Shown piece after piece: positions 53,064-56,170 of a stretch of DNA of 64,000 nucleotides; position 1 is the first letter of the stretch, and each line of letters starts with the position of its first letter. Source of the DNA: Methanocaldococcus sp. 28A (GTDB lineage: Archaea; AGJL01; Methanococci; Methanococcales; Methanocaldococcaceae); assembly GCA_049852185.1 (NCBI GenBank), contig CP187540.1; one strand, given 5' to 3'. The position numbers and the translations under genes are program-made. The notes beneath the pieces were generated by a model. That model did no database searches and had not been told where the DNA came from. It saw only the letters and a program-made list of their open reading frames with translations.

Positions 53064-54323
53064 GTGATAACTATGAGGGTTTATGTTGAAGGTTATGGTT
53101 GCGTATTAAATACTGCGGACACTGAAATTATAAAGAATTCTTTAAAAGAATATGGCTTTGAATTAGTTAATAGCTTAGATGAAGCAGATATTGTAATAAT
53201 AAACACATGTGTCGTCAGATTAGAAACTGAAAATAGAATGATTTACAGAATAAATGAGATTAAAAATTTAGGAAAAGACGTTGTAGTTGCAGGATGTTTG
53301 CCAAAAGCTTTAAAGAATAAGGTTAATGGATTTTTACACATATATCCAAGAGAATCCCATAGAGCTGGAGAAATATTGAGAGATTATATTGAAAAGAACA
53401 AAAGAACAATATATGCTGAAGAAGAAATTAACAAAACACTCTATAGAAAGTTAGATTACTTAAAGCCTTCTTTAATTACACCACTACCAATATGCGAGGG
53501 CTGTTTAGGAAATTGCTCTTATTGTATTGTAAAAATAGCGAGAGGAAATTTAATATCCTACCCAAGGGAAAAAATCGTTAATAAAGCCAAAGAATTGATA
53601 AGTAAAGGAGTTAAATGCTTATTTATAACCGCCCAAGATACTGCATGTTATGGTTTTGATATTGGAGATAACTTAGCTAATTTGTTAAATGAGTTATCCC
53701 AAATAGACGGAGAATTTATAATGAGAGTTGGAATGATGCATGCAAAAAATGTCCAGCCAATATTGGATGAGCTTATAGAAGCTTATCAAAATGAGAAAGT
53801 TGGAAAATTTTTACATCTCCCTTTACAAAGTGGAGATGATGAAATTCTAAATAAAATGAAGAGAGGATATACAGTAGATGAATTTAAAGAAATTGTTAAT
53901 GAATTTAGAAGAAAAGTTAAAAATCTTTGCTTTACAACAGATATAATTGTTGGATTCCCTGGAGAAACAGAAGAGCAGTTTCAAAATACATTAGAAATCT
54001 TAAAAGAATTAAAGCCAGATTATATCCATGGAGCTAAGTATTCCCAAAGGAGAGGAACAGAAGCTGCAAAAATGAAACAGGTAGATACAAAAATTAGGAA
54101 AAGAAGAAGTGAAATATTGGATAAATTGAGAAGAGAATTGAGCTATTTAAACAATAAAAAGTACATTGGAAAAACTCTGAGAGTTTTAGTTTTAAATGAA
54201 GGAAAAGGTTATACTGACAATTTCAAAGTCGTTAAGTTTGAAGGAGGAGATGTTGGAGAGTTTAGAAAAGTAAAAATTACAGATGCTAAGACATTTGGAT
54301 TGAGAGGGGAAATTGTTTCCTAA
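53064..54323 (+). CDS. tRNA methylthiotransferase (MiaB/MtaB-like radical SAM, ms2t6A type)
   Basis: YGCVLN, INTC, AGC, EGCLGNCSYC, DIIVGFPGET; TRAM tail. Confidence 0.9.
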   Translation: MITMRVYVEGYGCVLNTADTEIIKNSLKEYGFELVNSLDEADIVIINTCVVRLETENRMIYRINEIKNLGKDVVVAGCLPKALKNKVNGFLHIYPRESHRAGEILRDYIEKNKRTIYAEEEINKTLYRKLDYLKPSLITPLPICEGCLGNCSYCIVKIARGNLISYPREKIVNKAKELISKGVKCLFITAQDTACYGFDIGDNLANLLNELSQIDGEFIMRVGMMHAKNVQPILDELIEAYQNEKVGKFLHLPLQSGDDEILNKMKRGYTVDEFKEIVNEFRRKVKNLCFTTDIIVGFPGETEEQFQNTLEILKELKPDYIHGAKYSQRRGTEAAKMKQVDTKIRKRRSEILDKLRRELSYLNNKKYIGKTLRVLVLNEGKGYTDNFKVVKFEGGDVGEFRKVKITDAKTFGLRGEIVS

Positions 54324-54336
54324 TTATGCTTTTCTA

Positions 54337-54726
54337 TTACTTCTTTAATTCATTTAAAACTTCATCTAAATCAACTTTTTTAATTTCACCAAATTTAACC
54401 ACATCTCCATCTCCTTCATATCTTGGGATGATATGGAAATGAACATGATTAACCTCTTGCCCAGCAGCTTTTCCATTGTTATTAACTATGTTATATCCAT
54501 CAAAACCTAATTTTTTTAATACCTCAATTGTCTTCTTAACTCCTTTTATAAAATTGCAAAGCTCATCATCTGGCATTTCATCAAATCTTTCATAATGCTT
54601 TTTTGGAATAACTAAAGTATGCCCTCTATTTCTTGGATTTATATCTAAGAAAGCTAAGACATTATCATCTTCATAAACAATCTTTGCTGGAATTTCTCCA
54701 TTAACTATTTTGCAGAATATGCACAT
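54337..54726 (-). CDS. HIT-family hydrolase
   Basis: MCIFCKI..GHTLVIPK..HVHFHIIPR. Confidence 0.95.
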   Translation of the reverse strand: MCIFCKIVNGEIPAKIVYEDDNVLAFLDINPRNRGHTLVIPKKHYERFDEMPDDELCNFIKGVKKTIEVLKKLGFDGYNIVNNNGKAAGQEVNHVHFHIIPRYEGDGDVVKFGEIKKVDLDEVLNELKK

Positions 54727-54735
54727 CTTTTCACC

Positions 54736-54893
54736 TTATTTAATTAACACGTCTTTATACTTAAATAGTAATTCAATTCCATAGGACTCCGTCCTATTGG
54801 GATACTCGGGATGCACTACCTCGCTTACGCTCGGTAGTGCCTCTTTGCTGTTATTTAATTAACACGTCTTTATACTTAAATAGTAATTCAATT
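54736..54893. repeat. 72-bp GC-rich two-hairpin insert (54779-54850) between perfect 43-bp direct repeats
   Basis: TTATTTAATTAACACGTCTTTATACTTAAATAGTAATTCAATT at 54736-54778 and 54851-54893. Confidence 0.92.
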
Positions 54894-56170
54894 ATAGCTC
54901 TTATATCTTTTCCCTGCATCTTTGCTTCATTTAAATATATATTATACAATTGAGGAGTTAATGGTCTCGGCATAGATTTCCACATTTCAGCATGAATCAA
55001 TAAATCAAAACATCTTGCTTCTGCTTCACTCAATCCAAGTTTTTTATATTCACCTTCATGAATCTTATAAAGTAAATTTTCTTCCTTTGGCATAGATAAA
55101 ACTAAATTACACAGCTCTGTTGTAGGAATTGGCTCAGCAATGGATACAAAAACGTCATCGAGTTCAGCATCTACAATGAAATCTTTAGTTAATAGATAAT
55201 CCATCTCTGTCTCTGTTGGATATGCAACTATAAAGCTTCCTGCAACTTTAACTCCACAGTCCTTTGCTAATTTTATTGCATCTAAATTTTTTTCCCTATT
55301 AGTTCCTTTTTTCATATCTTTTAAAATTTTATTACTTCCACTTTCAATTCCATAAAACACCCATCCAATTGTGTAATTCTTTATAGCCTCTAATATATCC
55401 TCATCAACATAATCAACTCTCATATCTGGAACTGATAAATTGTTTTTACCAACAATCTCAGATATCTTTTCCAAAAGTTCAAAAAACTTATTTCTATTTA
55501 CTGATTTTTTGAAGCCATATAAACTTCCAGTTCCTCCACTTATTGCTATTCTTTTTGCTCCATATCTTTTGAATGCCTTAACTTCTTCAACAACATCCTC
55601 AACATCTCTACTCCTAATATTCTTTCCAAAAAACTTTGGAACTTGACAAAATGTGCAATTTCCTAAACATCCTCTGTGCGTTTCAATATAAACATTAGCC
55701 CCCCTAACTGATTGTTGCCCTATGTCTTTTGGTATCAATGGGAGAGGATGATTTAGCTCAGGTTTTTCTTTTGGGTAATTTATTACAATCTCTTCTCCAT
55801 CTCTATAAGCTAAGCCCTCCTTATCTCCTTCAATAATTTTTGGTGTTGTTATCTCTCCCTCTCCAACTATAACTCCATCTACATTTAGTTCATTTAAAAT
55901 AATCTCTGGATAAGCTGAAACACATCCAGCAACATAAACTTTGGTTTTATTTTTTCTTACTTTTTTTATAAAATCTATTGTTTCTCTAATCCTTTTATCC
56001 AATATATGCAAAGTTGAATATAGGCTAAATATAACAACATCTGACTTTAAAAATAATGTTTTATCTATTTTTCTAACTAAATAAACACTATAACCCATAT
56101 TTTTTAAAATTCCGCCAATAAGCATAGAGCCATAGGTATAAACATCTGGACTGTAAATTGTGATTTTCAT
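54851..56170 (-). CDS. Cobalamin-dependent radical SAM methyltransferase (MJ0865 family; probable MCR glutamine C-methyltransferase)
   Basis: B12-binding N-domain (GEGE), ETHRGCLGNCTFC, GIESGS. Confidence 0.75.
   Translation of the reverse strand: MKITIYSPDVYTYGSMLIGGILKNMGYSVYLVRKIDKTLFLKSDVVIFSLYSTLHILDKRIRETIDFIKKVRKNKTKVYVAGCVSAYPEIILNELNVDGVIVGEGEITTPKIIEGDKEGLAYRDGEEIVINYPKEKPELNHPLPLIPKDIGQQSVRGANVYIETHRGCLGNCTFCQVPKFFGKNIRSRDVEDVVEEVKAFKRYGAKRIAISGGTGSLYGFKKSVNRNKFFELLEKISEIVGKNNLSVPDMRVDYVDEDILEAIKNYTIGWVFYGIESGSNKILKDMKKGTNREKNLDAIKLAKDCGVKVAGSFIVAYPTETEMDYLLTKDFIVDAELDDVFVSIAEPIPTTELCNLVLSMPKEENLLYKIHEGEYKKLGLSEAEARCFDLLIHAEMWKSMPRPLTPQLYNIYLNEAKMQGKDIRAIIELLFKYKDVLIK

Follow-up and report, generated by a model that had tools for sequence, protein, structure and literature searches.

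A GC-rich hairpin repeat between two copies of a gene end in Methanocaldococcus sp. 28A, and the long, one-sided duplications of its family

The window analysed here is a stretch of 64,000 nucleotides from the chromosome of Methanocaldococcus sp. 28A (G000:C1:1440001-1504000, where G000 stands for this genome of 1.56 Mb, 29.7% GC and 99.9% completeness). At one junction in the window, between a radical-SAM gene and a HIT-family gene on the same strand, a short insert was found between two copies of the radical-SAM gene end (Table 1). The two copies were identical at 43 of 43 positions, with a start-to-start distance of 115, and the insert between them (54779-54850) was 72 bases long with a GC content of 55%, compared to 29.7% for the genome. 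The last 14 codons of the radical-SAM gene and its TAA are thus present a second time, as a redundant version, in the left copy. This copy adjoins the CCATAGG end of the element; on its other side, read along the coding strand, GGTGAAAAGATG of the HIT gene follows directly. The stop codon in the right copy coincides exactly with the outer edge of the duplication.

Table 1. Features of the radical-SAM/HIT junction, in window positions
Feature	Position	Strand	Basis or remark
Radical_SAM and B12-binding domain gene, 439 aa, intact	56170..54851	-	domain match
Right copy of 43-bp duplication	54851..54893	-	functional 3' end of the radical-SAM gene including TAA
10-base tail CTCTTTGCTG	54841..54850	+	CCTCTT is the conserved 3' end of the family
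Hairpin 2 (H2) GCACTACC-TCGCTTACGCTC-GGTAGTGC	54813..54840	+	sequence, family alignment, folding
12-base linker GATACTCGGGAT; family consensus (G/T)ATACCCGGGAT	54801..54812	+	family alignment
Hairpin 1 (H1) CCATAGGAC-tcc-GTCCTATTGG, one bulged T	54779..54800	+	sequence, family alignment, folding
Left copy of 43-bp duplication	54736..54778	-	43/43 identity; single copy in G011
GGTGA ribosome-binding site of the HIT gene	54731-54735	complement	
HIT-family gene, 129 aa	54726..54337	-	domain match

H1 and H2 were shown to form the minimum-energy DNA fold on either strand (-13.4 and -15.5 kcal/mol, z -3.4 and -4.7), and none of 200 shuffles folded as stably as the 72-bp insert. Among 3000 random genome positions, 12 reached a flank-to-flank local alignment score of at least 30, compared to a score of 43 at this locus. 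The original prediction of a perfect duplication around a GC-rich two-hairpin insert, with each copy ending at TAA on the coding strand, was thus borne out. The same applied to its gene names, which agree with the domain matches, and to its view that the radical-SAM gene had stayed intact and the HIT gene had kept its GGTGA site, since the reading frame is whole and GGTGA comes directly after the left copy. Terminal inverted repeats were absent, the CCATAGG... and ...CCTCTT(TGCTG) ends of the insert not being inverted copies of each other. The comparison with Rfam that had been suggested at the same time was negative for the element: a permissive scan of 54300-55300, Hgc RNAs included, gave no match on it at E up to 10, and the three snoRNA matches in that region were at chance level and all off the element. 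A resemblance was seen between 54842-54856, comprising tail and first bases of the right copy (TCTTTGCTGTTATTT), and a stretch of the HIT gene at 54681-54695 (TCTTTGCTGGAATTT). The idea that the TGCTG of the tail had been copied from the matching 9-mer in the HIT gene (54681-54689) was dropped and the match judged a coincidence, because a tail of this kind is also seen on copies in other genomes; an extension of the form (T/A)GCT(G) is common to some of them.

Searches with BLAST and an nhmmer profile identified the insert as one copy of a genus-wide, non-coding family of GC-rich palindromic repeats consisting of H1, H2 and a CCTCTT tail. At E < 1e-5, 16 copies were present in this genome, none of them on its 10-kb second contig. 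The insert matched positions 1-66 of the family model (E 3.6e-20) and was 82-90% identical to other near-full-length copies. By BLAST, relatives of the 72-mer were found in 13 of the 16 other genomes of the genus and in both genomes of a second genus, with none in 12 genomes from two further genera of the order and no match in plasmid and phage collections. The family is modular, as H1 also occurs alone, doubled or inverted, and in the second genus an H2 and tail 92-97% identical to those of the present copy are preceded by a different first hairpin. The genome survey for H1 used a GC filter; matches to a loose regular expression for H1 were mostly noise.

An alignment of 42 copies from 12 genomes showed stem pairing in 96% of cells, compared to only 29-50% in slid-partner controls of the same alignment. 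Nine of the 22 pairs had changed on both sides (44 cells), and none of 500 shuffles reached the pairing and covariation values. In the H1 of the present copy, a G-C pair of the family consensus is replaced by A-T through compensating changes (a GGAC/GTCC double change). For H2 the loop region is conserved and the stem covaries among copies. At the centre of H2 the pairs alternate between U-A and C-G or between G-C and A-U, and G-U intermediates are absent; since the pairs switch in this way, a constraint at the DNA level or templated correction of the palindrome would fit at least as well as a function of the RNA. One further copy in this genome (G000:C1:36111-36443; L007:1220-1552) contains about 270 bp of GC-rich, structured-looking sequence in the H1 loop; this 333-bp relative is missing from the genome G011, has a 55-bp duplication on its flanks and gave nothing in Rfam at E up to 0.01.

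Long flanking duplications were found to be a trait of the family. With a duplication called at a flank score of at least 15 in 100-nt flanks, 7 of the 16 copies in this genome were positive, with duplications of 21-48 bp, and nine were without; random sites were positive in 20 of 3000 cases. In an out-of-sample set of 31 full-length copies from ten other genomes, 23 were positive and eight were not, and after removal of seven CRISPR-linked copies of genome G016, six of which score at least 15, the proportion was 17/24; some of these counts include orthologous copies in different genomes (e.g., L153/L160 and L157/L158). Other copies with flanking repeats, which the original prediction had proposed to look for, are therefore frequent. 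Duplication lengths in the family ranged from 12 to 76 bp. Near-perfect duplications were seen at the present locus, at 776420 (47/48), at L149 (34/34) and at L153 (48/50), others being about 85% identical. In several old duplications the gene-attached copy is almost the same as the empty-site sequence and the other copy has drifted, which fits decay of a redundant copy but also import by recombination.

The same pattern was obtained from a comparison of whole chromosomes. The chromosome was aligned to the whole of G011 (1.476 Mb, mean identity 91.4%), and all 127 indels of 25-400 bp between collinear matches were scanned, an overlap in the empty genome being taken as a duplication. An overlap of at least 12 bp was found for 13 of the 24 GC-rich-hairpin inserts (up to 58 bp), 6 of the 58 MITE inserts and 8 of the 45 others. 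As read from the list, 17 of the 24 GC-rich-hairpin indels were of the H1, H2 or ACACCTC types, and the 13 long overlaps were all among these. Two of the indels classed as others were AT-stemmed hairpins with overlaps of 75 and 76 bp. These are inserts of 41-45 bp of the GATGAAACTTT...AAAGTTTCA type, located at G000:C1:254097-254137 and G011:C1:1126366-1126410, with the longest duplications found (76 and 75 bp, respectively); the former duplicates a gene start, and its two copies differ mostly at synonymous positions.

The duplications were also one-sided with respect to the neighboring genes. A gene terminus lay within the duplication for 15 of 30 duplication-bearing copies, according to a crude test requiring an open frame of at least 40 codons on 200-nt flanks, and the tail-side copy was the one joined to the gene in 15/15. 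In three of these the copy on the CCATAGG side also qualified; it never qualified alone. With orthologues counted once, our own count for tail-side polarity is about 13 independent loci to none. In most copies the left repeat abuts CCATAGG with 0-5 bases between them, and the right repeat begins 0-37 bases after the tail. Among the 13 rows with a gene end, nine had the outer edge of the duplication no more than 3 nt from the stop codon, and in four the two coincided exactly: the present locus, L152, and L153 and L160, the latter two apparently orthologous. Two further rows were 1-2 nt out, and in four rows the stop lay at least 8 bases out in the tail, with a changed protein end. In gene-start cases the duplication sets in at the ATG or as much as 18 bases ahead of it. 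The family copy at L156 (G015:C1:413737-414203) was inserted at a tRNA gene's 3' end, with a duplication of the terminal 20 nt of that gene, a footprint that is usually left by integrase-borne elements.

The expectation that the element inserts near gene ends is thus supported by relatives that repeatedly duplicate gene ends or gene starts. Anchoring at the gene boundary looks mechanistic, because a random staggered cut filtered by gene survival should put the stop codon anywhere in the duplication. Restoration of the gene end may reflect the mechanism or which insertions survive, and the phrase that the element inserts and restores describes the outcome. The long, one-sided duplications point to an insertion process unlike that of ordinary small transposons.

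The orthologous junction was compared in 12 genomes in which both anchors could be located. G011, which is the sister of this genome in the local gene tree (100/100 support) and 96-97% identical to it around the site, contains one 43-mer and no element, and reads ...CACC-TATTTAATTAACAAGTTTTTATACTTAAATAGTAATTCAATT-ATAGCTC... at this position. The element was also absent from the junction in seven more genomes (G003, G005, G006, G008, G010, G012, and G016). With 16 copies in this genome and an empty orthologous site in G011, the proposal of a non-coding mobile unit, together with the empty-site comparison suggested for it, found support. In G015 and G001, H1 was found 9 bp deeper in the gene, with different second hairpins behind it and duplications that have diverged; the copy attached to the gene is shortened in G001, and new residues form the end of the protein there. 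G004 and G014 contain a degenerate copy whose boundary agrees with the present one to within one base and beside which a remnant of the left copy is kept; it is of the same subtype as the present one (ATACT linker, TTAC loop, TGCAG tail). The local gene tree places these two genomes with the empty G010, away from G000 and G011.

This distribution allows several histories. The 15-bp stretch at this locus could have received repeated insertions, could carry an old polymorphism spread by recombination, or could have lost elements through recombination between the repeats. The empty site of G011 could itself be a deletion, because G004 and G014 are filled while their sister G010 and G011 are empty. 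Under one reading no insertion took place in this lineage: the filled state would be old, the element would have been lost through recombination between the repeats in G011 and others, or the filled allele would move among lineages by homologous recombination, and the perfect repeat would be due to gene conversion. This reading agrees with the same-subtype copy of G004 and G014 in the same place, whose left remnant is closer to the allele of this genome than to their own gene end, and with the left copy of G015, which over 48 positions has 5 mismatches to the allele of this genome and 11 to its own right copy. It covers the distribution but not the origin, as the duplication had to arise once anyway, and a 43/43 repeat is unexpected after roughly 15% divergence of this genome from G004 and G014 unless conversion is invoked; we regard it as unlikely. 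The perfect repeat argues for a young event in this lineage, and the subtype of G004 and G014 for age or transfer. Dating of the insertion from repeat identity was abandoned, because the distribution at the locus conflicts with a simple recent insertion. A near-identical source copy was absent, the best other copy in the genome being 90% identical, although the duplication is perfect. That the 43-bp duplication is an assembly artefact is hardly credible, since the same architecture was found at many loci in eleven genomes and a degenerate copy is present at the same site in two other assemblies. A look-up of sequencing runs listed five, each containing 4-5% of the sampled words, with no RNA run among them. 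The insert is probably an inserted family member with a true target duplication.

On balance, we favor the fuller statement that this family member was inserted at the radical-SAM gene end by a polar process that makes long duplications, with the polarity as a property of the mechanism. Such a process would duplicate tens of bases of the target at the end of the radical-SAM gene. The tail end would be joined at or beside the gene boundary, here exactly after the stop codon, and the CCATAGG end would be joined 20-60 bp further inside the gene. As an outcome, the gene would keep its whole end and a redundant copy would be left on the other side. Most likely, an integrase-like activity supplied in trans made the two strand joinings at positions far apart; alternatively, a host polymerase would have changed template to the element and then returned to the target.

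A search for enzymes that track the element gave little support to transposases. The original prediction had linked the element to HUH enzymes (TnpA-Y1/RAYT), i.e., a Y1 transposase of the IS200/IS605 TnpA or RAYT kind that would move it as single-stranded DNA. A bulged T, as present in H1, is a feature of IS608-type ends, and one IS200/IS605 element is resident in this genome (tnpA 143 aa, tnpB 392 aa; G000:C1:829400-831450). However, Y1_Tnp (PF01797) was found in 3 of the 17 genomes of the genus, whereas the element is present in 14, and the ends of the resident IS, a hairpin CACCGCCC-TTTA-GGGCGGTG and a related hairpin, are unrelated in sequence to the hairpins of the element. Furthermore, to our knowledge the IS200/IS605 (Y1) family makes no target duplications, while a duplication is present here. 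The link to HUH enzymes was consequently not upheld, and we consider it very improbable. Solo copies of the IS200/IS605 end hairpins (CACCGCCCTAAAGGGCGGTG and TCTCCTTGCTTCGCAAGGAGA) were seen at several other sites, and at least six tnpB-like matches exist in G000 beyond this IS. Reverse transcriptase (RVT_1, PF00078) gave no match in this 99.9% complete genome, the only one searched for it (0/1), which speaks against a retroposed (SINE-like) element.

A transposase acting in trans, of the kind that makes long variable duplications, was also considered. IS1634 and IS1549 duplicate 8-514 bp by a mechanism given as unknown and are the only insertion sequences reported with long variable duplications (PMC2266710). 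DDE_Tnp_1 had 23 matches in this genome. This domain was detected in 7 of the 17 genomes and was missing from six carriers of the element (G011, G016, G012, G007, G001, and G014), among which G011 has its own hairpin insertions with long duplications. An IS1634-family gene above the cut-off was found in only one of the 17 genomes. IS1634 and IS1549 are full-length ISs with their own DDE transposase, and no such gene tracks the element here; the element's lack of terminal inverted repeats and of copies in the plasmid and phage collections also argues against this explanation, which we consider improbable. At G000:C1:76797-76890 and about nine more sites a hairpin pair (TCCAAGAGGCGTTTTTGACCTCTTGGA and TGCCTTTCCGTTTTTGGAAAGGCA) was observed in or beside DDE_Tnp_1 ORFs of about 350 aa; it probably belongs to the IS that is most abundant in this genome, either as its ends or as inner repeats.

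The alternative of a replication or repair error would need no dedicated enzyme. A host polymerase would leave the target, copy a hairpin element elsewhere and return upstream, so that part of the target is copied twice. This explanation agrees with the finding that no dedicated enzyme tracks the element, with the broad range of duplication lengths and with the variable extra bases (0-37 nt) on the tail side. Stable GC-rich hairpins in a genome of 30% GC are plausible pause sites, and at L150 and in the 648745 group the target just outside the duplication resembles the CCTCTT end of the element. On the other hand, the CCATAGG end is sharp in most copies, strict polarity is no obvious outcome of random switching, and consistent microhomology was looked for at the present locus and not found. 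Template switching also predicts inserts of non-repeat sequence with long duplications, whereas only the 8 of 45 other indels mentioned above overlap by at least 12 bp. We regard it as a tenable explanation, though not a probable one.

Spacer integration into CRISPR arrays is polar and duplicates about 30-40 bp of its target, and it is the only reaction known to us that combines a duplication of this size with polarity. In G016, 6-7 of the nine fetched copies were located between the leader-adjacent CRISPR repeat and the first repeat of the array proper, with the CCATAGG end exactly at the 3' end of the repeat. In G028, from the second genus, 4-5 of 14 copies occupied the same slot, with that genome's own first hairpin, and in this genome one of the 16 copies (184724) lies in a CRISPR repeat at the edge of a small array, with a duplication of 21 nt. 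H1 was near CRISPR arrays of this genome in 3 of 32 cases, too few to lean on. The units in the leader slot are L138, L141-L144, L151, and L154 in G016 and L167 and L171-L173 in G028. At L138, two hairpin units alternate with CRISPR repeats, and in G028 the upstream repeat is of another type (ending in AATTGAAAC) than the array repeats.

Of the enzyme genes whose correlation with the element had been suggested as a check, Y1 did not track it, RVT_1 gave no match in this genome, and Cas1 co-occurred with it within the genus. Two cas1 genes are present in this genome. In the genus, Cas1 was detected in each of the 14 genomes that carry the element; of the three that lack it, one has Cas1, and the two others are 96% and 85% complete. 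These observations can be read as Cas1-Cas2 inserting the hairpin units as oversized, structured 'prespacers', normally at the leader-side repeat and now and then at gene ends, where the duplicated 20-60 bp would take the role of the repeat. The combination of an anchored and a variable joint recalls a first attack on the leader side and a second attack set by a ruler. Archaeal Cas1-Cas2 has been reported to integrate at off-target sites in vitro (PMC6698737).

Several findings weigh against Cas1-Cas2. The duplications of 12-76 bp (43 here) do not cluster on the length of the CRISPR repeat, which in this genome is about 37 nt, and the inserts of 66-130 bp (72 bp here) are two to three times as long as a spacer, about 36 nt in this genome. 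The array-linked copies have homologous leaders, so that one old insertion may have been multiplied with the arrays, and every one of them has a downstream repeat with a degenerate 5' end. Of the 12 genomes in the two genera that lack the element, seven also have Cas1, and related genomes are not independent. We therefore consider insertion by Cas1-Cas2 rather unlikely, and doubt still more that the hairpin units are natural Cas1-Cas2 substrates, by which the arrangement of gene end, hairpin unit and gene end would be a repeat-spacer-repeat born outside an array. Nevertheless, Cas1-Cas2 is the only candidate with circumstantial support for the integrase-like activity that we favor; no resident transposase tracks the element.

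Suyama, Lathe and Bork reportedly described three palindromic repetitive elements, MJRE1-3, from Methanocaldococcus jannaschii in 2005 (FEBS Lett). Like the present family, these are short, palindromic, multi-copy and mostly extragenic, occur in the same organisms and are occasionally found inside genes; the part of the description available to us, on which the likeness is based, does not mention long polar duplications, anchoring at stop or start codons, or copies in CRISPR slots. Judged by description and not by sequence, the family presumably corresponds to these palindromic repeats already reported in the group. Our literature search on palindromic repeats of Methanocaldococcus, MITEs and target duplications of hairpin elements revealed no description of long duplications, but the 2005 paper on MJRE was outside its scope, so that the status as unpublished is unproven. 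As far as the searches reach, long, polar duplications anchored at gene ends and copies in spacer slots have not been described.

The REP/BIME sequences of enterobacteria and pseudomonads are likewise GC-rich imperfect hairpins that form mosaics in either orientation between operon genes and show compensating changes. REPs are tied to RAYT (Y1), however, while Y1 genes do not track the element here, and we know of no REPs with target duplications of 20-60 bp. MITEs share with the element the small size, the lack of coding capacity and the polymorphism between close genomes, but those resident here have inverted ends AGGACTTTCGCAG...CTGCGAAAGTCCT, which the hairpin element lacks, and the cleanest of them leave 8-13 bp; the element's own duplication, 43 bp here and 12-76 bp in the family, is not the short one of fixed length (2-14 bp) expected of a MITE. 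The MITEs with these ends form a family of 85-97 bp (e.g., G000:C1:83283-83370, 83831-83927, and 1032739-1032825) that is also present in G011 and polymorphic between the two genomes, with overlaps of about 8-9 bp. A second type of MITE starts with TAGTTGTGTGCAAAA and has a central TGAATGCCTTCC...GGAAGGCATTCA hairpin, about 30 of which were seen in the genome. CRISPR spacer integration is likewise polar and leaves a short piece of DNA flanked by the two copies of its duplicated target, and copies of the element do lie in spacer slots; it differs from the present case, in which the duplication varies in length, the inserted DNA is too long for a spacer and gene ends instead of repeats are targeted. 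Finally, integrative elements with att sites restore the end of a tRNA or protein gene by a duplicated segment of 20-50 bp. Such elements carry att and an integrase, whereas the present insert measures only 72 bp and its family duplicates a different sequence at every locus.

Prokaryotes commonly carry small palindromic repeats, yet the way in which most of these spread is not understood. The footprint described here is informative in this respect, as it consists of duplications of tens of bases with one sharp and one variable end, a fixed orientation to the gene and an outer edge at the stop or start codon; we know of no ordinary transposon that leaves such a footprint. An insertion of this kind can land among the first or last codons of closely spaced genes and leave them intact. 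If the replication or repair route were true, the loci would reveal a template-switch pathway in hyperthermophilic archaea. If instead the CRISPR integrase were the agent and the hairpin units its substrates, these loci would show off-target integration in nature, of which they would be a natural record, and may be a possible seed of new arrays. Both ideas are testable with existing proteins and strains.
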